Under the pieces are notes generated by a model. It saw nothing but the letters and a program-made list of their open reading frames with translations. It searched no databases and had not been told where the DNA came from. A program made the position numbers and the translations under genes. A stretch of DNA of 64,000 bases from Candidatus Giovannonibacteria bacterium (GTDB taxonomy: Bacteria > Patescibacteriota > Minisyncoccia > JACPKW01 > UBA11713): NCBI GenBank assembly GCA_016186825.1, contig JACPKW010000006.1, forward strand, positions 3,191-67,190, written 5' to 3'. Shown piece by piece: positions 11,366 through 46,445 of this stretch; within the stretch, counting starts at the first letter, position 1, and each line of letters starts with the position of its first letter.

Positions 11366-12652
11366 ATGTCCAAAGTTCAGTTTTTTATAATAGTTTTTTC
11401 GATTTTTATCGCGATTTTGGCAGTTTTAGTCCTGTCTGGAGTGCTCCCCGGATTGGATCCGCTCGGAAGCGAGAACCCGGTTGATTTAGTTATCTGGGGA
11501 ACAGTCCCTGAAAATGTTTTTGCAAATCAGGCCTACGAGTTAAAAAAACTTCGTGAAAACATTAATGTTGCTTATGTTCAAAAACCCGCCGCTGACTTTG
11601 AAAACACTGTAATAAATGCCTTGGCTTCCGGCTCCGGCCCAGACTTAGTTTTGGCGAGTTCCGACTTAATAATCAAGCATCAAGATAAATTCGAGCTCTT
11701 GGATCAGAAAACTCTCACGGAGAGAAGATTCCACGACGCGTTTCTTGACGGCGCAGACATTTTGATTAAACAAAACGGGATAATTGGATTGCCTCTCGTA
11801 ATAGACCCACTTGTTCTTTACTGGAACAAGGATCTTTTTTCTAACGAAGGACTCGCTAGCCCGCCCAAAACCTGGGAAGAGTTTCAAAACTATTCGCGCG
11901 CACTTACAAAAATTGACGGATCGGGAAATATTTTAGAGTCCGGCGCCGCTCTGGGTCTTGATAAAAACGTGAGGCATTATAAGGAAATTCTCTCGATGCT
12001 GATGAGGCAAGCCGGAAACCCAATCATTGACGCCCAAACCACCCAGCCGGTGCTTGCCGAGGAAAACAGCCAAAACGCCAGGGCCGCAGAAGACGCGCTC
12101 CGATTTTACTCTGAATTCGCGCGCCCCCAAAAAGCTTCATACAGCTGGAATTCGTCGAAGCCGGATTCGAGGCAGGCTTTTCTCGAAGGCAAGCTCGCGA
12201 TGTATTTCGGCCTCGGCTCGGATTTTCAATATTTAAGGGACGCCAATCCTCATTTAAATTTTGATATCGCATCCGTTCCGCAGAGCGGCACCGTAAAATC
12301 AACATCCGGAAAATTTCTGGCATTTGTGATCTCGAGGCAATCGCCCTATAAAGCCGAGGCCTTCCAGACCGCGAGTTATTTTGTATCCTTAAACCCAATT
12401 TCAGATATTGCCGCAAAAATTTTTCTCCCTCCCGCGCGCCGCGATTTTGCTTCAACAAAAGTCAATAATCCCGTGATGGCAGTCCTTGTTTTAGAAGCAG
12501 TGCGCGCGCGGCTTTGGCCGGACGTCAATTCGGAAAAAACTTCTGAAATTTTTTCAGACATGATAAAATCGGTTTATAGCGGCGGGAAAAGCGCCTTAGA
12601 CGCCGCGCGAGATGCGCAAAGCAAACTTGAAGCTCTCTATAATCAAAATTAA
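11366..12652 (+). CDS. ABC transporter extracellular solute-binding protein (family 1-like)
   Basis: 428 aa, N-terminal anchor/signal, SBP-like fold pattern. Confidence 0.7.
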   Translation: MSKVQFFIIVFSIFIAILAVLVLSGVLPGLDPLGSENPVDLVIWGTVPENVFANQAYELKKLRENINVAYVQKPAADFENTVINALASGSGPDLVLASSDLIIKHQDKFELLDQKTLTERRFHDAFLDGADILIKQNGIIGLPLVIDPLVLYWNKDLFSNEGLASPPKTWEEFQNYSRALTKIDGSGNILESGAALGLDKNVRHYKEILSMLMRQAGNPIIDAQTTQPVLAEENSQNARAAEDALRFYSEFARPQKASYSWNSSKPDSRQAFLEGKLAMYFGLGSDFQYLRDANPHLNFDIASVPQSGTVKSTSGKFLAFVISRQSPYKAEAFQTASYFVSLNPISDIAAKIFLPPARRDFASTKVNNPVMAVLVLEAVRARLWPDVNSEKTSEIFSDMIKSVYSGGKSALDAARDAQSKLEALYNQN

Positions 12653-13601
12653 TAAATTTTTCATTGCTTCTTTTTTAGCCATTCTTTTAGGAATGGCTTT
12701 TGTGTTCTCTTTTTCTGAAGCATACGCGCAAGCGCCCATTGTTCAGTGCGGAAACCCCGGTCAGCCCATGTGCAATTTGTGCGATCTTTATACGGGAATA
12801 CGCCGTATAATTAACTTTCTGCTCGTAGGCGTAGCAGTGCCGCTTGCAACCGCAGCTATGATCTGGGGAGGGATCGTGCTTGTTACATCTGGAAGTTCCG
12901 ACCGCCATACTTTAGGAAAAACGATTCTTTGGTATACGGCATTAGGCTTTCTTATCACACTCGGAGCGTGGCTTATTGTAAATACGATTCTTGATACCGT
13001 TGGGTTTAGACTGCCCTTCGGAACGGGCCAATGGTGGAACTATGAAATCTGCAAAAAATTTGACGAGTTTAAAACTGTAACTGGCGGACCCTCTGTCCCA
13101 ACAACCCCCACGACGCCGACGATGCCTTCAGTACCAACGACTGGTGGCCGAAATTGCCCAAACTGCACAAACCTGTCGCTTTCAGCAACGAATACAGCTT
13201 GCCGAAAAACCGCATCAGGGATCTGCCAGATTGATGCGAGCACAAATGAAAAACTAAAAACCTTGCAGAATGAATTGGGTAAGTCTGTAGAGCCCCTGTC
13301 CTTAACAATTACTGAAGCTTACCCTCCTATTCTTGTGCAATGCGCTTATCAAGGCCAAAAAGATTGTCATAAGGATGCCTGTCATTGGGACGGGACTTGC
13401 GTCGATGCTAAATTAATAGCCCCAACGTATACCGGAAAACAAATTGGTGATGTTGTAACAAGGGCAAAAAACGCCCAGCTTGACGCTTATTATGAAGTTG
13501 CCGATAAAACGCGCGCAAATAAACTGATAAGCCAAGGAGTGCCTGCAAGCAATATCTGGGTAACTGGAGCCAAGGAACACTTCCATATCCGCTCGAAATA
13601 A
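12612..13601 (+). CDS. TrbC/VirB2-like T4SS pilin domain fused to PT-rich linker and Cys-rich C-terminal domain
   Basis: N-domain IRRIINFLLVGVAVPLATAAMIWGGIVLVTSGSS..ILWYTALGFLITLGAWLIVNTIL matches the pilin family of the three downstream genes; linker PSVPTTPTTPTMPSVPTTGG; C-domain has 10 Cys; start uncertain (overlaps upstream gene). Confidence 0.5.
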   Translation: MRKANLKLSIIKINKFFIASFLAILLGMAFVFSFSEAYAQAPIVQCGNPGQPMCNLCDLYTGIRRIINFLLVGVAVPLATAAMIWGGIVLVTSGSSDRHTLGKTILWYTALGFLITLGAWLIVNTILDTVGFRLPFGTGQWWNYEICKKFDEFKTVTGGPSVPTTPTTPTMPSVPTTGGRNCPNCTNLSLSATNTACRKTASGICQIDASTNEKLKTLQNELGKSVEPLSLTITEAYPPILVQCAYQGQKDCHKDACHWDGTCVDAKLIAPTYTGKQIGDVVTRAKNAQLDAYYEVADKTRANKLISQGVPASNIWVTGAKEHFHIRSK

Positions 13602-13695
13602 TTATCCATTTCACAAAAACCGCCTGCTTGCTAAAATTATTAGTATATTACTAAGCATCAAAGGTCATATAAATTAAAGGTTTTTTAGTTAAATT

Positions 13696-14040
13696 ATGAA
13701 AAAAGTCGCAAAAAAAATATTGCCTTATGCCGCCGCAGGGCTTCTGCCCCTCTTGGCTTTTGCCCAAACGGCAGAGTCAATTATCACTAGAATTGATCGA
13801 ATTCTCCAACAAGTAATTCCTATTCTTCTGATAATCGGCACGATCGTATTTCTGTGGGGAATAATTGTTTTTATCACAGCAGGCGCTTCTGAAGAGAAAA
13901 AGAGCTATGGAAAATATTTGATTATTTACGGACTTGTTGGCCTCTTTGTGATGGTGGCGATCTGGGGAATTGTCGGAGTTCTTGTAAACACTTTCGGAGT
14001 GGGGGGTAGGCGCGTTCCTCGCGATGTTGGCGGAATATAA
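13696..14040 (+). CDS. TrbC/VirB2-like (T4SS) pilin family protein
   Basis: 114 aa; signal peptide; IPILLIIGTIVFLWGIIVFITAGASEEKKSYGKYLIIYGLVGLFVMVAIWGIV two-helix pilin signature. Confidence 0.6.
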   Translation: MKKVAKKILPYAAAGLLPLLAFAQTAESIITRIDRILQQVIPILLIIGTIVFLWGIIVFITAGASEEKKSYGKYLIIYGLVGLFVMVAIWGIVGVLVNTFGVGGRRVPRDVGGI

Positions 14041-14055
14041 GCAGCAACTTTTTTA

Positions 14056-14328
14056 ATGCCTGCATTGATTGCATACGCCAAGAGCGCGGATGAGATAATT
14101 GATATAACGATTGCCGAAGTTATCCAGCCGTTTCTGATTGTTTTATTCGCGCTCGCGGCGATTCTCTTTTTCTGGGGAGTGGTCCAGTTCATCATGAACC
14201 CCGATAGCGAGGATAAAAAGGCGAGCGGGAGGCAGCATATGATATGGGGGCTGATCGGACTTGCAATAATGTTCGGCGTAAATGGGATTATTAAAATTCT
14301 TCAAAACTTCGTAGGACAGATAAAATAA
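14056..14328 (+). CDS. TrbC/VirB2-like pilin family protein
   Basis: 90 aa paralog (FLIVLFALAAILFFWGVVQFIMNPDSEDKKASGRQHMIWGLIGLAIMFGVNGI). Confidence 0.55.
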   Translation: MPALIAYAKSADEIIDITIAEVIQPFLIVLFALAAILFFWGVVQFIMNPDSEDKKASGRQHMIWGLIGLAIMFGVNGIIKILQNFVGQIK

Positions 14329-14329
14329 T

Positions 14330-14836
14330 ATGGACTTTTTAATTCCCGTAGCTAACGCGCAGACCTTCAAAGGCGCTGCGGACAATATCACAAACGCTCT
14401 CGAATCAGTCATCCCGATTCTCTTTTTAATCGCGACAATCGTATTTCTTTGGGGCGTTGTTTTATACATCACAGCGGCAGGTTCGGAGGATAAAAATAAA
14501 AAGGGGCATAAATATATTATCTGGGGGCTAGTCGGTTTGTTTGTAATGGTTGCCGTTTGGGGACTTGTAAGATTAATCACATCACTTGTTTTTGGAACTG
14601 CGATTTTGCCCCGTTCTGCTGATATCCCGTGTTTACCCGGACAAACCTGTAGCTCGAGTAATTCCGGAAATTCCGCCGACTGGAACTCTGGAGGAAGGTA
14701 TGAAGGCTGGTATCCGGAAGACCAAGAAGATGAATCAGGAAATAGTATAAATGTCAACAGCGGCGTATTTGAAGTCCCTACTCCGACAGATCCATGCGAA
14801 GGCGACAACCCGGCATATTGGGATCCTGACTGTTAA
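14330..14836 (+). CDS. TrbC/VirB2-like pilin family protein with Cys-containing acidic C-terminal tail
   Basis: 168 aa paralog (IPILFLIATIVFLWGVVLYITAAGSEDKNKKGHKYIIWGLVGLFVMVAVWGLV). Confidence 0.55.
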   Translation: MDFLIPVANAQTFKGAADNITNALESVIPILFLIATIVFLWGVVLYITAAGSEDKNKKGHKYIIWGLVGLFVMVAVWGLVRLITSLVFGTAILPRSADIPCLPGQTCSSSNSGNSADWNSGGRYEGWYPEDQEDESGNSINVNSGVFEVPTPTDPCEGDNPAYWDPDC

Positions 14837-14973
14837 TGTATAAATCAGGACTAAAATTCAGCGCAGGCGCAATTGGTTTGATAATCATAGGAATTGCGTT
14901 TCTCCTTATTCTTCAGGCAGTGAACAAAAATTCCGAAAATCAAGCAGCAAATATTTTGCAAACTGAAAATTAA
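14836..14973 (+). CDS. small single-TM protein (45 aa), start overlaps upstream stop (TAATG)
   Basis: MYKSGLKFSAGAIGLIIIGIAFLLILQAVNKNSENQAANILQTEN; below ORF-track length cutoff, read directly from sequence. Confidence 0.3.
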   Translation: MYKSGLKFSAGAIGLIIIGIAFLLILQAVNKNSENQAANILQTEN

Positions 14974-14985
14974 TTCAAGTAATTG

Positions 14986-15056
14986 TGCGGCCAGCGAGAA
15001 TTGAACTCGCGTCTCGTCCTTGGCAAGGACGCATTCTGCCACTAAACCATGGCCGC
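14986..15056 (-). tRNA. tRNA-Gly (GCC)
   Basis: GCGGCCA/TGGCCGC acceptor, anticodon loop TTGCCAA, TTCAATT T-loop. Confidence 0.85.
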
Positions 15057-15097
15057 AATGAATATTATTTTATCTGATAAAAATCAATTTTTCAAAG

Positions 15098-15179
15098 TGC
15101 CTCCGAGAGGATTTGAACCTCTAACCCCTTCGGGACGGCGTTCTAAGCGCCGCGCGTATGCCAGTTCCGCCACGGAGGC
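15098..15179 (-). tRNA. tRNA-Leu (TAG)
   Basis: GCCTCCG acceptor, loop CTTAGAA, long variable arm GTCCCGAAGGGGTT. Confidence 0.85.
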
Positions 15180-15185
15180 ATTTTG

Positions 15186-15269
15186 TGCCCGGAGTGGGGC
15201 TCGAACCCACAAGCCCTTTCGGGCCGAGGATTTTAAGTCCTCTGCGTAAACCAATTCCGCCATCCGGGC
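15186..15269 (-). tRNA. tRNA-Leu (TAA)
   Basis: GCCCGGA acceptor, loop CTTAAAA, long variable arm. Confidence 0.85.
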
Positions 15270-15292
15270 ATTTAAGTTTTTTTAATCTTCGG

Positions 15293-15483
15293 AGGCCATG
15301 GCGGGACTCGCACCCGCGTATAGCGGTTTTGCCCGCCTGCCAGAGCTTGAGGCCTGGGAGGGATTCGAACCCTCGTATATGGGTTTTGCAGACCCATGCC
15401 TTACCTCTTGGCTACCAGGCCATATTTGCTCAGGCCGATTGCGGGCAGGCAGACCGCCGCGTTAGCTTCTTCGCCACATGGCC
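15293..15483 (-). tRNA. candidate interrupted/split tRNA (Gly-GCC-like) whose anticodon loop contains tRNA-Cys
   Basis: 5' part 15448-15483: GGCCATG-TG-GCGA..ACGC-G-GCGGT-CTGCC; 3' part 15293-15330: AA-ACCGC-TATAC-GCGGG-TGCGAGT-CCCGC-CATGGCC-T; acceptor 7/7 and anticodon stem 5/5 complementary; D/T loops non-canonical. Confidence 0.4.
15350..15421 (-). tRNA. tRNA-Cys (GCA)
   Basis: GGCCTGG/CCAGGCC acceptor, loop CTGCAAA, GGTTCGAATCC. Confidence 0.85.
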
Positions 15484-37770: not shown

Positions 37771-38064
37771 TTAAGGATTGGTTTCAAATCCCGCGCCATT
37801 AGCATCAAAAGCGGATTTTTTTTCGTTTATTCTTTGGAATACTTTTCGAAAACTGTCTTTTTTCAGCGTCTGTAATACGTCATCATCAGAATAGTTTTTT
37901 GCGCTGTTCCCATTCAAATTAACGGAGTAAACCCACCAGTCAAATACAAAAACAATAATAAGCAGAAGGACAGAGAAAGCAATAAGCTTGCTCCACCAGC
38001 GCCCGGGCGCCGAACTAAATACATCACTTATATTAACTGACGGTTTTTTTATATTAAAATTCAT
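37771..38064 (-). CDS. hypothetical membrane protein, first gene downstream of pilO in T4P operon
   Basis: 97 aa, one TM. Confidence 0.35.
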   Translation of the reverse strand: MNFNIKKPSVNISDVFSSAPGRWWSKLIAFSVLLLIIVFVFDWWVYSVNLNGNSAKNYSDDDVLQTLKKDSFRKVFQRINEKKSAFDANGAGFETNP

Positions 38065-38585
38065 TTTGAAAAAATATAGCTGATAAGCCTAAAGGTATAA
38101 TAAGTCTTCCAATTTCCGCTTTCCCCGGCTTCTTTCCTAAAATTTATTTTATCCATGATCATTTGATAAGGCATGTTTTCGAGTAAAAAAGAATATCGGA
38201 GCAAGCCGGAAAAAGACCCCGAAGCTTCCAGCTGGAAAGACGGCCCGAGCTCTGCAGCGTTCAAAATTCCAGTCGCTGAAGTTACCTTCAAATTTATGCC
38301 CGATAGGCGGGCGATTTCTTCTAAGTCCTCAATAAAGTGGACAAGATTTTCGTCAGTTATGAATAATTTATCAAGCATTTCTTTTTCTTCGTTTAAATCG
38401 TCCAAAGTATTTGTAATGGCTTTTACATTTCTTGTTTTAGTTTCAGCGAGTGCAATATTGCTTTTTAATATACGAACTTCTGCTTTTAAAATCTGAATCT
38501 GATTTAAAACAAAATATCCTGCGACAAAAACCGAGATTAAAATCGCCGCACCTCCCAATATTCTTTTGTCTAAAAGAATATTCAT
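38061..38585 (-). CDS. PilO-like type IV pilus inner-membrane assembly protein
   Basis: 174 aa, N-terminal TM + coiled coil, position after pilN. Confidence 0.5.
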   Translation of the reverse strand: MNILLDKRILGGAAILISVFVAGYFVLNQIQILKAEVRILKSNIALAETKTRNVKAITNTLDDLNEEKEMLDKLFITDENLVHFIEDLEEIARLSGINLKVTSATGILNAAELGPSFQLEASGSFSGLLRYSFLLENMPYQMIMDKINFRKEAGESGNWKTYYTFRLISYIFSK

Positions 38586-39124
38586 TTTAATTCTAATGTT
38601 AAAGAAAATGGAGCGTTAGAATCTTTCAATAAATTTGAGACTGGCGACTCCACTTTTTTAAAGGCGTCCACTGATTCCAAATTTTTTAAAAAAACAAGAA
38701 AATCATCTCTTCTTTGGGCTACGCCTTCTACAAAAATGATTTCTTTAGAATTCGCCGCTTTTCTTTCGTAATTTAAACTCTCGATAGCAATTCCGGAATT
38801 TTGCTTTTCTAGAATTTTTTTAAGATTCGAAGCGACTGGCCGGATTTCCCGCTCGCGCTCTTCAAAATTCGACAGCTTGGAATTGAACTCTTTTAGAGTT
38901 TTTTCAATGAGGCCGACCTCTTTGAGTTCGGGGCTTGTCTCGGCAAATTCGAGACCCCTTTCTAATCCGGTCTTTTCAATCAGAAGAGAAAAATAAACAG
39001 GCAAAATCAGAACCGTGCTGATAAAAATCGCAATTGCGATTAAAAATTCAAGCGCCATAAGAAAGCGCGCAAATCTTTCGCGCTTAAGTTTTTTTATATC
39101 TTCTTGCGGAAGGAGATTAATCAT
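38582..39124 (-). CDS. PilN-like type IV pilus assembly protein
   Basis: 180 aa, N-terminal TM, follows pilM with 8-nt overlap. Confidence 0.5.
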   Translation of the reverse strand: MINLLPQEDIKKLKRERFARFLMALEFLIAIAIFISTVLILPVYFSLLIEKTGLERGLEFAETSPELKEVGLIEKTLKEFNSKLSNFEEREREIRPVASNLKKILEKQNSGIAIESLNYERKAANSKEIIFVEGVAQRRDDFLVFLKNLESVDAFKKVESPVSNLLKDSNAPFSLTLELK

Positions 39125-40214
39125 AACTTCGTTCGGTTTTTATCGCCGCGAGCGCTAAACCAAGAGCGGTCGCATAAGAAAGCGAATTTCGGTAAGTAAT
39201 TTCGGGAATGTAGTCATTGAAATCGACAACATTAACCCACGGATTTGACATTATGATTGGAAGTTTCAGTTCGTAGGAAAGATACTCCTTAAAACCGTAA
39301 AGATTTGAATCCCCGCCGCAGAGATAAATTTTCCGCACCGAAGGGTCTGGGAAATTTACATTTTTCGCATGCTCTTTCCAAAATATCAAATGTCTCGAGA
39401 TCTCATCCCGGATCGCTGATATCGTTGGCAAAAGTGCGTCAAAAACTTCTTTGTTTTCCTCTGTTCTAACGAGACCTTTCTCATTTTTTATTCGTTCCGC
39501 TTCTTCGGGAGAAATTTTAAAAATTCTTTGAAGAACTTCGTCCAAAGCCGCGCCGGCAACAGTAACGGTTGAGGTAAATCTTACAACCCCTTCGGAAACA
39601 ATTATAAAGCTTGTGCGAGTTCGGCCAAAATCAACAACCATGACAGGTTCTCTTTCGCTTTTAGGAAGCGCCGAGCGCACCAAAGCATGCGCTTCCATTT
39701 CAAACGAAATCGGTATTAGGCCTGCCTGGCGGACGACATCGCGATAATCTTCAACCAAGGCCTTCGGAAACGCGACTACGACCAAATCCAGATTATTACT
39801 ATCTCCGGAATGCGGGATAATTTCGAAATCAAAAATCGCCTGCCGCGCGTTAAGGGGAATATGCTCTTCCAGTTGCAGCTCGAGAGCTTCACGCAAATTT
39901 TCTGAAGGCATCGCTGGCATAGTAACCACATCGACAAAAGCTTTTTCTTCCGGAAGCGAGAGAACTACTCCCCTCGAAGCATGTTTTTCAAAAACCTCTT
40001 TCAAAATCGAGGCCAGTGTGTCTTTATCCTTAATTTCCCCGGCCTTTATCACTCCGGGGGGAAGAATTTTTTCGCCGAAATTTTCAACTTCAAGATGGCC
40101 TGAACTTTCCACAAGCTCAACGTATTTCATGGAACGGTCCGAAATATCAATCCCAAAAGCAGGCATTCTTAGATAGCGTGGAGGAGGAAAAAATTTATAA
40201 ATAAGTCTATCCAT
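39117..40214 (-). CDS. pilM: type IV pilus assembly ATPase-like protein PilM
   Basis: 365 aa actin-like fold; AFGIDISDRSMKYVEL N-terminus. Confidence 0.8.
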   Translation of the reverse strand: MDRLIYKFFPPPRYLRMPAFGIDISDRSMKYVELVESSGHLEVENFGEKILPPGVIKAGEIKDKDTLASILKEVFEKHASRGVVLSLPEEKAFVDVVTMPAMPSENLREALELQLEEHIPLNARQAIFDFEIIPHSGDSNNLDLVVVAFPKALVEDYRDVVRQAGLIPISFEMEAHALVRSALPKSEREPVMVVDFGRTRTSFIIVSEGVVRFTSTVTVAGAALDEVLQRIFKISPEEAERIKNEKGLVRTEENKEVFDALLPTISAIRDEISRHLIFWKEHAKNVNFPDPSVRKIYLCGGDSNLYGFKEYLSYELKLPIIMSNPWVNVVDFNDYIPEITYRNSLSYATALGLALAAIKTERSYD

Positions 40215-40216
40215 TT

Positions 40217-42022
40217 TTATGGTAAAACTTCCCTCCAGGTATCAATCCCCCAGCCGCCGGAAGGACCGGATGTGAAATTTAGATTGGCGAGTCCAGATAC
40301 ATAATTTATTACTGCGTTGTTGTTTAAGTGCATCCCATACGCAGTCGCTTCTTTTGCCAATGCATTATTGGCAAAATCAATGCGGCCATCGGATGCATAA
40401 TAAATTACACCGTCAGAGTTGTTGGAAATATTCATAACATTTTGGCTCGGCGCATTCTTCGCGGAGAGCAAAAGAATAAAACTTTCAGGATCGCCCGATC
40501 CTTCGAAAGTGCAGTTATTTGATACCGTAATTACTCCGTCTGAAAATATTATTCCTGAATCAGCTCCATAATCCGGCGAAAGCTTAATGACGCAGTTATT
40601 GGAAAAATTTATGTCGCCTGCCACATAAATTGTACCGGACACGGTAAGTATCGCATTATTTGAAACAGTCATGCTGCCATTAATTTTTTTTGGGCCGAGC
40701 GTTGCCAAAGCCCCATTTTCTGTCAGGCTGAAATTTCCGCTCGAATCGCATAAGGGACTCAAACATTCACCCCCAATTAACGAATCAGCTCTCCAGTCCT
40801 CAATCAAGCCGGCAGAAATCGGCAATTCTTCGCGCGAAGGATTGTCCACGATGCAATACTGATTGGGACAAGCCGAGCCATGCACTATATCGTCAACGAA
40901 AAGGTTTGCGCGTCCAGTGCCCATTGTGCTGTCCCCTACAGTCAAACTCTCGATTCTCGTGTTCACCCCGCCAATCCATACTTTAAACGAAAGATCACCG
41001 CCTACATCCGTCCAGCTTGCGGATCCGGAATCCCAGTCGGAAGTGTATTTTCCTGTGTTTGAGAGGTAGCCATCCGTCGAATCTTTTTTCCAGTTCCAGT
41101 AATTTGAGGAAGAATTTGAACCATAATCAAGAATAATCCAATATTTGCTGCCGTTTGCGAGAACCGGAACTGAAGAAAAAGCCACATTAATCCAGGACGG
41201 AGTCGAACCTACTGTGCTCGGAACAATTACGGCATTTGCCAAACTTGAACTTGCCGGTTTTCCTCCGTTATCAGAAGCGATGCGCACGTTGATACTCGAT
41301 CCCGGAGACCCGACTTTTCCCAGGTAAAGAGAAATTTTTGAAAGACCCCCCGAAGCATTTGTGATAAAAGACTGTGCTATATCGCGATTAGATGCGGCAG
41401 TCGCAAAGAATTGATCCGAATCGTAACTTTCCCAAGAAAGCGATGGATCCGATGTAATTCCTCCGGCGACGATGACATCGCCAAAAACTTTTGCGCCGTT
41501 TGACCCGACAACGTTTCCGTTCGAATAAACACTCCCGTTCACAATTGCGTTATTATCCATTGTGAGACCCCCATCTCCGACCTGAATCCCATAGAAAAAG
41601 CTGACATTATCACTTCCCATAGTGAGATGGGATTCAACCGCCCTCGTTGCTCCTGAATAATCTCCCGTGGAAGTGATTACGCGCTGGGTCTGTGTAGGAA
41701 TCGAAACGTTTGTTATAGCGCTTGCCCCATCGATGGATAGCGTAAAGGATGAGGTAAGATTTTTTCCCCGTCGCAAACGGTAAACTGCGTCATCAACCCC
41801 CGCTTCAGCGACAAAGAAAGAGAGGCGGGATTTAAAATTGCTTGAGGCTACTTTTGACTCTCTAAGCGCGAAGGCAGCGGTAGAAAAAATCACGGAAAGC
41901 ATAAGAAACATAATGATGATGACAGTGAGCAGAGCGGCTTGCCCGCTATTTTTTTGATTTGAAAATTGCTTGCCCGCCGAAGCCTTGGCGAAGGCGGGGA
42001 AATTAAAAATCGAAAATTTCAT
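40217..42022 (-). CDS. large pilus-associated surface protein (possible tip adhesin / PilX-PilY-like)
   Basis: 601 aa, N-terminal hydrophobic anchor, G/S/N-rich beta-rich body. Confidence 0.4.
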   Translation of the reverse strand: MKFSIFNFPAFAKASAGKQFSNQKNSGQAALLTVIIIMFLMLSVIFSTAAFALRESKVASSNFKSRLSFFVAEAGVDDAVYRLRRGKNLTSSFTLSIDGASAITNVSIPTQTQRVITSTGDYSGATRAVESHLTMGSDNVSFFYGIQVGDGGLTMDNNAIVNGSVYSNGNVVGSNGAKVFGDVIVAGGITSDPSLSWESYDSDQFFATAASNRDIAQSFITNASGGLSKISLYLGKVGSPGSSINVRIASDNGGKPASSSLANAVIVPSTVGSTPSWINVAFSSVPVLANGSKYWIILDYGSNSSSNYWNWKKDSTDGYLSNTGKYTSDWDSGSASWTDVGGDLSFKVWIGGVNTRIESLTVGDSTMGTGRANLFVDDIVHGSACPNQYCIVDNPSREELPISAGLIEDWRADSLIGGECLSPLCDSSGNFSLTENGALATLGPKKINGSMTVSNNAILTVSGTIYVAGDINFSNNCVIKLSPDYGADSGIIFSDGVITVSNNCTFEGSGDPESFILLLSAKNAPSQNVMNISNNSDGVIYYASDGRIDFANNALAKEATAYGMHLNNNAVINYVSGLANLNFTSGPSGGWGIDTWREVLP

Positions 42023-42023
42023 G

Positions 42024-42596
42024 TTAATACATCCCCCTTAAAACCGCGCTTCCATAAAAGTTTTTCGTTCTTAGATATGCGCCCGATCCGGCTTCCAACG
42101 TAAATTCGACTTTTATTATTTCCGAATTGATAGCGCCGGAGGAAATCATCCTATAAAATTTTAAATTTGTAACTCTGGTATCCGCAGTCAAGTCATCCGG
42201 AGGATTCGCGCCGTTTTGAACTTGTAATGTACCGGATGATAAGGAAAATTTCTTGTCCCCCACTTTCAATATTCCCGGACTTGCTCCAAAAACACTGACA
42301 CCCGTGTCTGTAACATTTGCGGCGCGAATTTCGCGCACCATAGTTTCAAGCGCCACGTCACCTTCCGCCGAAAGACTCCGCTCCACGCTGGTTCGCAAAT
42401 AAACTTTATAAATTGACAAGAGCGACCCCACTGCAAGAACCGCGATAATTGCTAAAATTCCTGAATAAACCACAAGTTCAAACAAAGAATATCCGCCGGA
42501 AAAAGATTTGAAAGGATCGCGTTGCATTAGTTGCTGAAAATATTTGATAAATATGTCGAAACACCGACGCTTGGAGTCGTATAGCGCTCCTGCCAA
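42024..42596 (-). CDS. pilin-like protein (prepilin-type N-terminus; start probably internal Met at ~42524)
   Basis: FKSFSGG|YSLFELVVYSGILAIIAVLAV with Glu at +5. Confidence 0.5.
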   Translation of the reverse strand: MAGALYDSKRRCFDIFIKYFQQLMQRDPFKSFSGGYSLFELVVYSGILAIIAVLAVGSLLSIYKVYLRTSVERSLSAEGDVALETMVREIRAANVTDTGVSVFGASPGILKVGDKKFSLSSGTLQVQNGANPPDDLTADTRVTNLKFYRMISSGAINSEIIKVEFTLEAGSGAYLRTKNFYGSAVLRGMY

Positions 42597-43060
42597 TATA
42601 TACTCACTGTTATTTTTTTAGTTTCGGGGTCTACTGTGCCGCCCGACGTAACTATATCCGCATTCGAATCGCGGGAAACACTTTGAACATTCACTTTTCT
42701 TCTGAAAAGGCCGTCAATCAGCCCCGGATCGGCAGTTACGATGCTCCAAACGGATGTTCCGGCATCGAAAGAAAGATAGTAATCCGTGCCGGGAGTTAAA
42801 CTTTCAAAATTAGCACCCCAGCTTTTATCTCTCAAAAAACGCATTGCTTCGATCCCCTCCTCGGCAAGGAAGTTTGCCCTGATTCTGTCCGAAGCTTCCA
42901 TGGAAAGCCGGTTCGAAATGATAAACACGGCAAGCAAAGAAAAAACTGTCGCGCTCAAAATTGAAGCGGCGATCACAACTTCAATAAGACCGAACCCAGA
43001 CGCGTTTTTTTTCATCATTTTTCTTGATTTTAACATATTACTTTGCAATTCCGGTCGCAT
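42527..43060 (-). CDS. type IV (pseudo)pilin
   Basis: KKNASG|FGLIEVVIAASIL prepilin cleavage/methylation motif. Confidence 0.65.
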   Translation of the reverse strand: MRPELQSNMLKSRKMMKKNASGFGLIEVVIAASILSATVFSLLAVFIISNRLSMEASDRIRANFLAEEGIEAMRFLRDKSWGANFESLTPGTDYYLSFDAGTSVWSIVTADPGLIDGLFRRKVNVQSVSRDSNADIVTSGGTVDPETKKITVSIYWQERYTTPSVGVSTYLSNIFSN

Positions 43061-43484
43061 AAATCGAAATTGTGCGCGATTTTGAACTATCCGAAACGGA
43101 TTGGATTGTAAGCGTGCCCGCTGCAGAGGAATTTCCGCTCAAACGCGCAAAAATTACATCGCTCGCTCCGCCTAAACTTATTGAGCTTACTGTCAAAACG
43201 CTCGGCAACAAATAAATTTCGTTCGAAGCATCAGAAGAATCATAAAGGGCGCCCTTAAAAAAGACTGCGCGATCCGCTTCAAAATGCACGCCGTAACTTG
43301 AATTACTCTCCGAAGCAAGTGTCCGGGCGCGGGCATCACTTAATAAACCCAAAATATTCGCATGCGCCTCTGCTAAAGCATTATTTTCGTTAAGCCTCAT
43401 AAAAGAGGCAATAATAACCGCCGCAAGCGCAAAAACAATAAGGATCACGAAAATATTTTCAATTAAAGTCATCCCCGATTTCAT
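43038..43484 (-). CDS. type IV pilin
   Basis: MKSG|MTLIENIFVILIVFALAAVII prepilin motif. Confidence 0.65.
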   Translation of the reverse strand: MKSGMTLIENIFVILIVFALAAVIIASFMRLNENNALAEAHANILGLLSDARARTLASESNSSYGVHFEADRAVFFKGALYDSSDASNEIYLLPSVLTVSSISLGGASDVIFARLSGNSSAAGTLTIQSVSDSSKSRTISIYATGIAK

Positions 43485-43486
43485 TT

Positions 43487-44695
43487 TTAAAGCGCTCCCG
43501 CCAAATTATATAAGGGCGTGATCATTGAAACCGCAAAGAAACCGACCGCAATGCCAATCACGATCATCAAAACCGGCTCGATTACCGCGGAGAGATCCTT
43601 CGTCTCCGAAGAAACTTCGCTTTCATAAAAAAGAGCGAGGCGGCTAAGCATTTCGGAAAGTTTGCCTGTCTCTTCTCCAACCGCAATCATTTCTCCAACC
43701 AAAAGCGGGTAAAGTTCGGGGTGAGCGATAAAAATTTTCGAGATCAGATTCCCTTTTTCAATATCTTTTTTCGCCTGCCGGATTACTTCTTTATAGTAAT
43801 GGTTTTGGAGCACATCTTCCGTAACCGTCAGAGCTTCAAGAATTTCCACTCCGGAGCTGATAAGCGAGCCGAGCGTGCGCGCGGTTCGCGCAGCGTTCGT
43901 TTTTTTTACCAAGCCCGAGATAACCGGCATTTTAAGCCAGATGGTATCAAAAAACTTTTTTCCCGCAACGCTCCTGTGCGCGGCAGTTAAGCCGGCGATT
44001 AGTAAAACCGCGGCTATGCTCACGAAGATGTAGTTTGTACTCAAAAAAGAGCTCAGGGCGATTATAATTTTTGTCGACAAAGGAAGTTCGACATTCATTT
44101 CTTCGAAAGTTTGAACCAGAGTCGGGACTACATAGATCAGCATCAAAATTCCAATCACTATAATCGCAATCAAAATAATAATCGGATAGACCATCGCCCC
44201 GCGAACCTTCCTTCTAAGATCGTAATCGCGCTTCAGCTGGTGCGAAATCAATTTCAGCGCTTCTTCAAGTTTTCCGGTTTTTTCGCCCGCCGAAACCATA
44301 GCGCGAAAGAGCCCTGAAAAAATGTTCTGATGCTTATCCATCGCCTGGGATAAATTTTCTCCGCGGCGAATCGCATTTGCAAGATCGACTAAGACTTCCT
44401 TAAAGCGGCGGTTGGGCGTTTGCTCGGAAAGAATTTCGATCGCGCGCGCAAGCGAGACGCCCGCGGCAACCATTACGGAAAGATTCCGCGCAAAAAGCAT
44501 TTTTTCCGCAATCGGCACGCGCGAAAAAAAAGAAGGGAGCCTAAATCCGCCTGCTTTTTTCCCTTCCGAGGTCTGAATCAAAATATAACCTTCTTTTTTT
44601 AGCACGCGCGCCAAGTCGAATTTGTCCTGGGCTTCGCGCGCCCCTTTTATTTCCTCTCCGGAAAGGCTCTTCGCAACATATGAAAAATTCGGCAT
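43487..44695 (-). CDS. pilC: type IV pilus platform protein PilC (GspF family)
   Basis: 402 aa, two T2SS-F repeats, 3 TM. Confidence 0.85.
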   Translation of the reverse strand: MPNFSYVAKSLSGEEIKGAREAQDKFDLARVLKKEGYILIQTSEGKKAGGFRLPSFFSRVPIAEKMLFARNLSVMVAAGVSLARAIEILSEQTPNRRFKEVLVDLANAIRRGENLSQAMDKHQNIFSGLFRAMVSAGEKTGKLEEALKLISHQLKRDYDLRRKVRGAMVYPIIILIAIIVIGILMLIYVVPTLVQTFEEMNVELPLSTKIIIALSSFLSTNYIFVSIAAVLLIAGLTAAHRSVAGKKFFDTIWLKMPVISGLVKKTNAARTARTLGSLISSGVEILEALTVTEDVLQNHYYKEVIRQAKKDIEKGNLISKIFIAHPELYPLLVGEMIAVGEETGKLSEMLSRLALFYESEVSSETKDLSAVIEPVLMIVIGIAVGFFAVSMITPLYNLAGAL

Positions 44696-44696
44696 G

Positions 44697-46445
44697 CTAC
44701 TCGCGTGTGACTCTTAAAACTTCTTCAATCGTAGTAACACCGAGGACAGCTTTCACAATTCCATCTTCCAGCATCGTCATCATTCCTTCTTCTTTGGCGG
44801 TTTTTTCTATCTGGTCTGAAGTTGCATTCGACATAATTAACGCTCTGATGCTTTCGGTCACGGGGAGGACTTCGTGAATTCCAATCCGGTTTTCAAAACC
44901 GTCGGGCGCTTCTGATGTCGGGACGGGTTTGTAAAATGAGACATCGTCCCAGCCATCGCCCGCCTTAATAGCTTTTGTTTCATGCAAAAATTTGAGCATG
45001 CGGTCCAAATCCACTTCTTTCCCGAGTTCTCGCAATTCATCTTTTGAAATTTTATAAGGCTTTTTTGAAGAACATAATACGCGCACTAAACGCTGGCCGA
45101 TAATCACGTTCACCGTGGAAGCGATTAAAAACGGCTCCACTTTCATGTCCAAAAGGCGCGGCAACGTCCCCGCTGCAGAATTTGTGTGCAAAGTCGAGAG
45201 CACAAGATGCCCAGTGAGCGCCGCGTTGATAGCGAGCGAAGCCGTTTCATTATCGCGGATCTCGCCTACCATTATGATGTCCGGGTCTTGCCTTACGAGC
45301 GAGCGGAGGCCGTTTGCAAAGCTAAATCCGATTTCAGGCTTGACTTGAGTTTGATTAACGCGAGGCATCCTATACTCAATCGGATCTTCAATCGTCGAAA
45401 TATTTACTTCGGGAGTATTTAAAATATCAATTATCGTATACAAAGTAGTCGTCTTTCCCGAACCAGTCGGCCCGGTCGCAAGCACCATCCCCACAGGACG
45501 CTTAATCGCGTGATGCAGACGTTCCAGCGCCTCTCCTCCGAATCCAAGCCCCTCAAGTGAAAACCCCTCCGAATTTTCGGGAAGCAGACGCATCACCGCC
45601 TTTTCGCCGTCATAAATTGGGAGGATCGAAACCCTGAAAGAAAATTTCTGCTCGGAATTTTCCATTTTGAATCTCCCGTCTTGCGGCAGGCGATGCTCAT
45701 CCAATTTCAGATTCGAAAGCACTTTTATTCTGGCAATTACTCCGGAAGCTGCTTTTTTAGGCAAAATCATCGCATCGTGAAGGATGCCGTCAATCCGGTA
45801 GCGCACCAAAAGTTGATTTTCTTCAGGCTCGATATGAATGTCCGATGCCCGCTGGGTGATTGCATGTTTCAAAAGTGTTTCGACGATTCGGACAACCGGC
45901 AGATCTTCCGCCATTTTTTTCAGATCTTCAGCATCTTTCTCCGGCTCACCAGAAGTTTGGGAAATTTTAAGATTCCCCGATTCTTTTTTGATGATTTCGC
46001 CGAATTCCGCCTCGAGCGATTTATTATATTGCTTCAAAACATGCTTGATTGAGGCCGGATTAGTTAAACGCGGCAGAATTTTTAAATCCGCCTTCTTGCG
46101 GATAAACTCGATTGTCTCCAAATCCTGCGGATCGAGCATGGCGACTTCAAGGCTTGAACCCAACTTTCTGTAGGAAACGATATTATGATTACGGGCGATC
46201 GGCTCGGGAATTATGCCCAAAACGTCCTCCGGAATCTTTTCATGCTCTAAGTTGACAAAAGGGATTCCGAGCACATATGCCCGCATTTTCCCCAAGTCTT
46301 CCTCGGTAATTTTCCCATCCTTCACGAGCACATCGCCCAAATCCTTTTCTCCTACGGCTTTTTTCTCCGCTTTTTCTATATCACTCGGGCTAACAAGCTC
46401 CGAATCAATTAAAAAAGTTTTTAGTTGTTTGGCATCAACTTTCAC
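44697..46445 (-). CDS. pilB: type IV pilus assembly ATPase PilB (GspE family)
   Basis: 582 aa; Walker A GPTGSGKTT, His box, T2SSE N-domain. Confidence 0.9.
   Translation of the reverse strand: MKVDAKQLKTFLIDSELVSPSDIEKAEKKAVGEKDLGDVLVKDGKITEEDLGKMRAYVLGIPFVNLEHEKIPEDVLGIIPEPIARNHNIVSYRKLGSSLEVAMLDPQDLETIEFIRKKADLKILPRLTNPASIKHVLKQYNKSLEAEFGEIIKKESGNLKISQTSGEPEKDAEDLKKMAEDLPVVRIVETLLKHAITQRASDIHIEPEENQLLVRYRIDGILHDAMILPKKAASGVIARIKVLSNLKLDEHRLPQDGRFKMENSEQKFSFRVSILPIYDGEKAVMRLLPENSEGFSLEGLGFGGEALERLHHAIKRPVGMVLATGPTGSGKTTTLYTIIDILNTPEVNISTIEDPIEYRMPRVNQTQVKPEIGFSFANGLRSLVRQDPDIIMVGEIRDNETASLAINAALTGHLVLSTLHTNSAAGTLPRLLDMKVEPFLIASTVNVIIGQRLVRVLCSSKKPYKISKDELRELGKEVDLDRMLKFLHETKAIKAGDGWDDVSFYKPVPTSEAPDGFENRIGIHEVLPVTESIRALIMSNATSDQIEKTAKEEGMMTMLEDGIVKAVLGVTTIEEVLRVTRE

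Follow-up and report, generated by a model that had tools for sequence, protein, structure and literature searches.

A 64-kb stretch of the Candidatus Giovannonibacteria contig JACPKW010000006.1 (the window throughout), from a genome of the candidate phyla radiation (CPR), or Patescibacteria, lineage, carries at 12612-14836 on the forward strand four neighbouring genes with the Pfam T4SS_pilin module (PF18895), the first of which joins this module to a C-terminal domain with the Hedgehog/DD-peptidase (LAS) zinc-hydrolase fold. Going by homology and predicted structure, the locus is probably the pilin set of a patescibacterial type IV secretion system (T4SS), made up of three small VirB2-like pilins and a VirB1-like cell-wall zinc peptidase tethered by a pilin module of its own. 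The fold, its motifs, the fusion architecture and, in relatives, synteny with T4SS genes are what the analysis shows. The pilin array is of a known kind, of which the three small pilins are ordinary members, and the fusion of a pilin to a Hedgehog-fold domain appears to be undescribed.

Five adjacent open reading frames (ORFs) occupy 12612-14973 on the forward strand, exactly where the first-pass annotation, made without database searches, had placed them; we refer to them as genes 1 to 5. Its assignment of the first four to T4SS-type pilins was borne out by hidden Markov model (HMM) searches: genes 2, 3 and 4 score 34.3, 30.7 and 41.1 bits against PF18895, above the curated cut-off of 26.6 bits, and gene 1 falls just under it with 25.1 bits (E 1.9e-5, residues 70-126) and also matches the TrbC/VirB2 family PF04956 (E 2.8e-4). 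Weak matches of the cluster to a mycoplasma pilin-like family of integrative and conjugative elements were found in NCBIfam. Four adjacent PF18895 matches are not a product of chance. The pilin modules share 27-50% pairwise identity, and each gene has the hairpin typical of such pilins, in which a leader precedes two hydrophobic helices with a short charged loop between them (SGSSDRHTLGK, ASEEKKSYGK, DSEDKKASGR and GSEDKNKKGHK in genes 1 to 4, respectively). The three small proteins had all been credited with a signal peptide plus two helices, of which the helices hold throughout, but full signal peptides are present only in genes 1 and 2 (39 and 23 aa), the leaders of genes 3 and 4 being unusually short (8 and 10 residues; 14056-14085 and 14330-14365) with the motif of AxA followed by Q or K kept. 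Judged from these sequences, leaders this short may point to YidC-type insertion that bypasses Sec, or to processing by a dedicated leader peptidase. Relatives share the gene-4-type leader, M..L.NL.IPVAxAQT.

The product of gene 1 is 100% identical to MBI2610196.1 (Candidatus Giovannonibacteria), which is annotated as "TrbC/VirB2 family protein". In the AlphaFold2 model its two pilin helices span residues 56-92 and 97-129, and a pilin profile built from the fusion family recognises the hairpin with an E value of 2e-25. Residues 149-182, of which 50% are Pro, Thr or Ser, form the linker (pLDDT below 50 at 165-178), and the folded C-terminal domain comprises about 150 aa (residues 181-329). The proposed order of pilin module, Pro/Thr linker and C-terminal domain is thus as the first-pass annotation described it, but the domain is shorter than the ~170 aa given there and has fewer than 10 cysteines: the protein has 12 Cys in total, 9 of them after the second helix and 8 in residues 160-329.

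This C-terminal domain had been put forward as an effector or adhesin; instead, it has a recognisable Hedgehog/DD-peptidase (LAS) fold with intact catalytic residues. Five full-length homologues share the invariant pattern TEA.PP...H...CH..GTCVD...YE...HF. Searched against PDB sequences, the domain profile yields below E 0.2 solely the N-domains of Sonic and Indian Hedgehog (E 0.02-0.17), in an alignment that spans the Hedgehog zinc motif, TE..H..H-x6-D, and with a 100-sequence profile the human Sonic Hedgehog N-domain (ShhN) reaches 21.7 bits across this stretch as well. AlphaFold2 predicted full-length gene 1 from a 100-sequence alignment with a pLDDT of 82.4, most of the C-terminal domain exceeding 90, and the domain alone with a pLDDT of 90.6 and a pTM of 0.85. 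In Foldseek searches of the PDB with either model, the 38 best matches are N-domains of Hedgehog proteins, almost every one at probability 1.00; with the domain-only model, their TM-scores are 0.46-0.57 (query-normalised) and their E values 2e-4 to 5e-3. They are followed there by MepA, LdcB (VanY-like), the Ply500 endolysin, VanX, the T5 endolysin and VanXYc, all enzymes whose substrates are peptidoglycan peptides or D-Ala-D-Ala, and in the full-length search LdcB and VanX are interspersed with helical proteins that are unrelated and match through the pilin hairpin. Among viral folds (BFVD) nothing significant was found, the best match being a phage "peptidase" at E 0.04. The isolated domain has no Pfam match at E ≤ 1 and no NCBIfam match, and Pfam finds none in the domain of 100 relatives. 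Since no model of these databases covers it in gene 1 or in these relatives, the domain is an undescribed sequence family inside the known Hedgehog/DD-peptidase (LAS) superfamily.

Across the 100 relatives, H253, C257, C263, D265, E295 and H323 are conserved in 100/100 and H258 in 97/100. Gene 1 itself has both zinc motifs whole, H258-x6-D265 and H323-F-H325; E295, in "YE", aligns with the Glu of "YYE" in Sonic Hedgehog, and H253 falls within its "GHH" stretch. In Hedgehog the zinc ligand is the second His of H-x-H. Within the family, the C-terminal motif reads H-F-H in 13% and H-F-S in 87% of the 100 members, its first His being invariant, and going by these sequences most members may have a metal site unlike the canonical one of LAS enzymes. 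The Hedgehog/DD-peptidase family is defined by H-x(6)-D, H-x-H and a Glu equivalent to E177 (PMC6027127), and all three elements are found in gene 1, with E295 as the Glu. Given the fold relatives, the invariant residues and the SLT-domain fusions that lie adjacent in related loci (below), we infer that the domain is a zinc peptidase acting on peptidoglycan peptides. In gene 1, a 10-residue insert at residues 244-253 (13341-13370; VQCAYQGQKDC), just before the invariant H253, adds C244 and C252; this insert is absent from the other 26 sequences of the domain alignment.

The same residues bear on whether the domain might be a non-catalytic adhesin or ligand, presented by the pilin and binding the host wall or a surface glycan. 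In favour of this, Hedgehog N-domains serve chiefly as ligands, the domain is extracellular and rich in cysteines, H-x-H is replaced by H-x-S in most of the family, and for Gram-positive systems an adhesin role of inactive VirB1 homologues has been proposed (PMC12857230). However, the general-base Glu E295 is as invariant as H253 and H323, and H258 nearly so, and H-x6-D, H-x-H and the Glu are all retained in gene 1, whereas in relatives that only bind, Drosophila Hh among them, the Asp and the Glu are gone (PMC6027127). Several genomes, moreover, pair the gene with SLT-type fusions, and a purely binding role seems to us very unlikely.

Gene 1 belongs to a large family. Clustered at 50% identity, its domain is represented by at least 923 clusters, almost entirely patescibacterial (923 cluster representatives at E ≤ 1e-3 and 625 at E ≤ 1e-10 in an exhaustive profile search). 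Among the 151 best representatives, 140 carry a pilin hairpin directly upstream of the Hedgehog-like domain, with a median linker of 41 aa; of the 11 without both parts, ten are short (101-201 aa) and probably fragments, and the eleventh is P0015 (408 aa). Long forms of up to 1044 aa keep the hairpin directly upstream of the domain in 16 of 17 cases, and PF18895 matches 97 of 100 family members (E ≤ 0.01). For the genomic contexts we scanned reference genomes with a single peptide pattern, [AP]CHxxGTCVD, taken from the 5-sequence domain alignment, and obtained 34 related loci, a sample biased by this pattern, almost all from Patescibacteria and spread over several classes; their neighbours were clustered and the recurrent families named by Pfam. 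In 12 of the 34 loci the fusion lies inside a T4SS cluster, in the order unk729-unk193-PrgI(VirB3)-unk213-VirB4-unk293-[fusion]-unk414 (unk293 and unk414 have no Pfam match), beside yidC, dnaA and dnaN, and is there the sole match to the pilin profiles within 10 kb. The first-pass annotation had suggested that the pilins may stand apart from a conjugation machine; conjugation is indeed unlikely, given how rarely Patescibacteria T4SS clusters include a relaxase (PMC12102498), but a separation from T4SSs does not hold in view of these relatives, in which the fusion follows virB4. Nor is the domain an ordinary enzyme unrelated to pili, which had been considered there as well: the enzyme fold is present, and the tie to pili is seen in the 140 hairpin-bearing representatives and the 12 T4SS-embedded loci. 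In the T4SS-embedded loci, the gene directly after virB4 encodes a conserved protein of 110-127 aa with several transmembrane helices, which the pilin profiles do not match.

In eight loci a second protein with a pilin module is encoded just upstream of the Hedgehog-like fusion, and in five of these PF18895 is fused to a lysozyme-like SLT or SLT_3 domain, three of these SLT-type matches scoring above the cut-off (57.4, 32.8 and 28.6 bits). This sister fusion is often separated from the Hedgehog-like one by a conserved protein of ~176 aa (unk176). In a Niyogibacteria genome, the slot flanked by the same solute-binding protein gene as in the window is taken by a lysozyme-like pilin fusion together with unk176, and four small pilins come next. 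The contexts of the fusions, of unk176 and of the pilin arrays vary across loci, and we therefore regard them as one recombining module that often, though not always, sits in a T4SS cluster. As the accession numbers of PF18895 and PF18896 are consecutive, Pfam curators may have built the two families from such fusions.

Other contexts would fit a general peptidoglycan carboxy- or endopeptidase that serves growth and division, is anchored by two pilin-derived helices and works independently of secretion. In 13 of the 34 loci and in a Kaiserbacteria locus the order is ClpB...[second pilin fusion-unk176]-[fusion]-MiaA-ParB-RelA-TopA, with VirB4 not nearby; all in all, the window, the Kaiserbacteria locus and ~13 other loci have no virB4 within 10 kb, their neighbours including gyrA, clpB, miaA, parB and relA. 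Two long forms lie within a ribosomal-protein operon, on its strand, in the L5-S8 interval, and virB4 was not seen in the genomic context of long forms; this position suggests constitutive and high, core-type expression. The two genes stand between rplE (L5) and rpsH (S8), which is the usual slot of rpsN (S14). The nearest solved relatives after Hedgehog also include wall enzymes of the LdcB, MepA and VanX type. On the other hand, 12 of the 34 loci place the gene inside a T4SS cluster directly after virB4, the pilin module stays recognisable across classes, and both the fusion in the window and the lysozyme-type fusion in the Niyogibacteria locus (L043) are linked to arrays of small pilins. 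The T4SS is itself core and origin-proximal in Patescibacteria (PMC12102498), so a housekeeping context is no argument against a T4SS link, and we consider a secretion-independent wall enzyme quite unlikely.

If the locus is a T4SS pilin set, as we favour, gene 1 would be exported and its signal peptide presumably cut between AYA and QA. The two helices would then insert with both ends outside, as in VirB2, and this topology would bring the disulfide-rich domain to the level of the cell wall, where the flexible tether of ~30 residues would hold it. There, H258, D265 and either H323 or H325 would serve as zinc ligands, and with E295 and H253 the domain would cut the peptide stems of peptidoglycan or its cross-links, as its fold, invariant residues and structural relatives suggest. 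Synteny and the conservation of the module further suggest that the pilin module docks the enzyme at the site of T4SS and pilin assembly and that the wall would be opened locally, which is the job of membrane-anchored VirB1-type hydrolases in Gram-positive T4SSs; such docking may replace the VirB8-mediated recruitment of those systems.

It is tempting to go one step further and to speculate that the fusion polymerises with the small pilins, so that the pilus itself would bear the peptidase (in other genomes, a lytic transglycosylase) on its shaft or tip and digest the host wall at the contact site. The pilin module has been kept as a pilin (97 of 100 members match PF18895), where a plain anchor would be expected to drift; in the loci embedded in a T4SS cluster, nothing apart from the fusion matches the pilin profiles within 10 kb of virB4, and in the window the fusion stands at the head of the three small pilins. 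In a VirB2-type filament, going by the F- and T-pilus structures, an extension at the C-terminus would be expected to face outward. CPR bacteria live as obligate epibionts, and growth on the host requires the T4SS and its pilins (PMC10633639). Yet no pilus has been observed, a 17-kDa domain on each subunit may not pack, so that the fusion would have to be a minor subunit, a membrane-resident enzyme fits the same data, and these data do not tell the host wall from the cell's own. We therefore hold a peptidase-bearing pilus to be possible but unlikely; its fuller form, in which such a pilus bores through the wall of the host bacterium with the peptidase described here and a lytic transglycosylase on the sister fusion to establish an epibiotic feeding contact, is a touch less likely still. 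If true, the VirB1 function reported missing from most Patescibacteria would be hidden in genes counted as VirB2.

Several points weigh against reading the locus as the pilin set of a T4SS with a tethered wall peptidase. T4SS machinery is absent within the 64-kb window: as the first-pass annotation had it, VirB4, VirB6 and VirD4 were not found (Pfam scan of ten large ORFs), profiles of patescibacterial VirB4, PrgI and six other T4SS-cluster families gave zero matches at E ≤ 1, and neither did a custom SLT-domain profile match the window at E ≤ 1. Other Giovannonibacteria assemblies are listed as VirB4-positive (PMC12102498 Table S1). Many family members stand among housekeeping genes with no virB4 within 10 kb, or in the ribosomal operon, which would also fit a general wall-maintenance enzyme. 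The window's context is shared by a close Giovannonibacteria relative that has three small pilins and no fusion gene, so the fusion is not obligatory for the array. By sequence, the small pilins resemble no structurally solved T4SS pilin (a profile of gene 4 relatives matches none in the PDB at E ≤ 10), and a pilus has so far not been reported for Patescibacteria T4SSs (PMC12857230). As for the domain, the TM-scores of the predicted structure to Hedgehog are moderate (~0.55) at 13-16% identity, no peptidase model of Pfam or NCBIfam (Peptidase_M15, VanY, HH_signal) fits its sequence, and, if the strand register is that of Sonic Hedgehog, the H-x-S motif leaves 87% of the family without the canonical third zinc ligand.

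Two other kinds of pilus were rejected. A conjugative pilus for DNA transfer would be expected to come with a relaxase, a coupling protein or features of a mobile element, all absent from the window, and the flanks are housekeeping genes. Pilins of a type IV pilus would carry an N-terminal methylation motif, which is missing here, and the true type IV pilus genes lie elsewhere in the window. Those genes form a separate, complete-looking cluster on the reverse strand (37771-46445) that encodes a PilB ATPase (T2SSE), PilC (T2SSF), PilM, a PilN-like protein, three proteins with an N-terminal methylation motif or GspH-like domain (pseudopilins) and a 601-aa protein without Pfam match.

The remaining features of the pilin locus are listed with the genes in Table 1. 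The 82-aa tail of gene 4 is acidic and Cys-containing, as first described (14 D/E, 2 K/R, 4 Cys), and of low complexity; it occurs in few relatives only, with a conserved start, LPxxxDxPCxPGxxC, and has no matches in Pfam and NCBIfam. One metagenomic relative of gene 4, P0156 (194 aa), combines a gene-3-like and a gene-4-like pilin in one ORF with the gene-4 leader internal; it is a natural fusion of tandem pilins or else an artefact of sequencing or assembly, and its sequence indicates that the order of genes 3 and 4 is conserved. Gene 5, too, is as described, and ORFs of its type are called as genes on other contigs of the same organism; by gene calls, made with no sequence search, there is no equivalent after the pilin array in the syntenic loci L041-L043. 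Upstream, the locus is flanked by genes for Mfd, S1, GyrA, a methyltransferase and a solute-binding protein, and downstream by four tRNAs, then RbfA and IF-2. The solute-binding protein gene overlaps the start of gene 1 by 41 nt, and the order GyrA-methyltransferase-solute-binding protein-pilins recurs in L041-L043, from Giovannonibacteria and Niyogibacteria relatives; a functional link between the solute-binding protein and the pilins is possible. Although the protein is of the ATP-binding cassette type, no permease or ATPase gene adjoins it. Promoter-like and terminator-like sites in the region occur at chance level (6 promoter-like sites against 5.1 expected), so the scan does not resolve the operon structure, and Rfam found no regulatory RNA in the cluster. 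ARAGORN called a 94-nt tRNA-SeC (anticodon tca) at 15291-15384 on the reverse strand, overlapping a tRNA-Cys; this call is probably spurious, since Rfam supports only the four ordinary tRNAs (14986-15421).

Table 1. Features of the pilin locus in the window (upper part) and of the related loci, in locus coordinates (lower part)
Feature	Position	Strand	Evidence or remark
Membrane-anchored extracellular solute-binding protein	11366..12652	+	SBP_bac_8 and SBP_bac_1 matches
Gene 1, VirB2-like pilin module + Hedgehog/DD-peptidase-fold domain, 329 aa	12612..13601	+	ORF, HMM, AlphaFold2
Gene 1 signal peptide, aa 1-39	12612..12728	+	Lys-rich n-region, hydrophobic core, AYA/QA; predicted cleavage
Gene 1 Cys-rich N-segment (C46, C54, C57) and two-helix pilin hairpin	12729..13016	+	PF18895, AlphaFold2
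Gene 1 Pro/Thr/Ser-rich flexible linker, ~aa 149-180	13056..13151	+	Composition, low pLDDT
Gene 1 Hedgehog/DD-peptidase (LAS) zinc-hydrolase-fold domain, aa 181-329	13152..13598	+	PDB profile, Foldseek, AlphaFold2
Promoter-like site, TTCACA-16-TAAAAT with TG	13610..13637	+	94-nt gap between genes 1 and 2; weak evidence
Gene 2, small T4SS-type pilin, 114 aa	13696..14040	+	PF18895 34.3 bits; 23-aa signal peptide (AFA/QT)
Gene 3, small T4SS-type pilin, 90 aa	14056..14328	+	PF18895 30.7 bits; 8-residue leader (MPALIAYA/KS)
Gene 4, small T4SS-type pilin, 168 aa	14330..14836	+	PF18895 41.1 bits; 10-residue leader
Gene 5, single-transmembrane-helix ORF, 45 aa	14836..14973	+	Overlaps gene 4 stop (TAATG)
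Post-virB4 protein with several transmembrane helices	L007 2923-3273; L008 1316-1672; L012 6858-7229; L013 8245-8577; L021 8432-8815; L037 3475-3840		Conserved neighbour
Long fusions, 1044 and 767 aa	L044/L045 10001-13135; L046 3522-5825	Same as operon	Two lineages
Pilin-SLT/SLT_3 sister family	L011 8202-9458; L018 7556-8707; L020 7861-9027; L022 3713-4861; L028 815-1819; L031 207-1073; L033 7744-8892; L036 8268-9296; L043 7248-8588		

CPR bacteria make up a large share of bacterial diversity, and how they attach to host bacteria and draw resources from them is a major open question; in one tractable species, the T4SS and pilins are essential. Against this background, a large unnamed family of at least 923 clusters that covalently joins a VirB2-type pilin module to a predicted Hedgehog-fold zinc peptidase is a concrete candidate for how monoderm T4SSs get through the cell wall. 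It also qualifies the published inference that Patescibacteria build pili without a VirB1 homologue, since hydrolase fusions are among the genes counted as VirB2. Finally, the Hedgehog/DD-peptidase family gains a deep-branching bacterial lineage, which bears on the origin of the animal Hedgehog ligand.

Tandem arrays of VirB2-like genes are known from Patescibacteria, with 2-11 genes, a mean identity of 25% and a maximum of 54% (PMC10633639; PMC12102498), and according to the published account of these arrays most Patescibacteria genomes with VirB2 have no VirB1. Patescibacteria T4SS clusters mostly lack relaxases (PMC12102498), and only few VirB8 homologues occur in Patescibacteria, nearly all of them in one class (Microbial Genomics paper). 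The array in the window agrees with these in its tandem PF18895 pilins of 27-50% identity, its chromosomal location and the lack of a relaxase nearby, and differs in lying away from virB4, of which there is none in 64 kb. The published accounts treat the array genes as plain pilins (PMC10633639; PMC12102498), and in the literature searched, whose coverage is incomplete, a hydrolase fused to a pilin module is not described.

A close published counterpart of gene 1 is SEML1_0007 of Ca. Southlakia epibionticum ML1 (3342 bp, 1113 aa), which adjoins the VirB4 homologue SEML1_0008, is essential by transposon sequencing (Tables S1, S2) and has at residues 951-1105 a domain assigned to ECOD "Hedgehog/DD-peptidase" on the ShhN template 6n7g chain C; SEML1_0006, with two lysozyme-like domains and a cysteine-peptidase domain, is essential as well (PMC10633639). 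Shared with our family are the C-terminal Hedgehog/DD-peptidase domain, the position directly after virB4, as for the fusion in 12 loci, and the lysozyme-type protein beyond. With 1113 aa, SEML1_0007 is much longer than gene 1 (329 aa), and the comparison draws on the published domain assignment; long forms of the family, up to 1044 aa, do carry the hairpin.

In its architecture of a membrane-anchored, extracellular putative wall hydrolase, gene 1 would fit the VirB1 class of Gram-positive T4SSs (PrgK of pCF10, TraG of pIP501, Orf14 of Tn916), which likewise combine an N-terminal anchor with extracellular wall-degrading domains; wall degradation by gene 1 is predicted from its fold and residues. 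All known Gram-positive VirB1 homologues are membrane-anchored with their enzymatic domains extracellular, and VirB8 aids their localisation (PMC12857230). They are encoded in T4SS clusters, as are relatives of gene 1 though not the copy in the window, and pair a peptidase with a glycosidase, as do relatives of gene 1. The differences are that the anchor of gene 1 is a VirB2-like two-helix pilin module instead of a single transmembrane helix, that its predicted peptidase is Hedgehog/M15-like and not CHAP or LytM, and that in its family peptidase and glycosidase reside on separate pilin-fused proteins; by Pfam, gene 1 has no SLT or lysozyme-like domain of the kind by which the VirB1 class is recognised. 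PrgK, for its part, carries a LytM domain, and LytM is a peptidase of family M23 and belongs to the LAS group. With the LAS zinc hydrolases (ShhN, bacterial Hh-like proteins, VanX, LdcB/VanY, MepA and Ply500; PMC6027127), the domain of gene 1 shares the fold, H-x6-D, H-x-H and the Glu. It departs from Hedgehog in that, as read from the alignment, the acidic calcium-site residues WDEDG are replaced by PP(T), and its family stands out among the LAS relatives by an invariant Cys pair, C257 and C263, that flanks the first zinc His.

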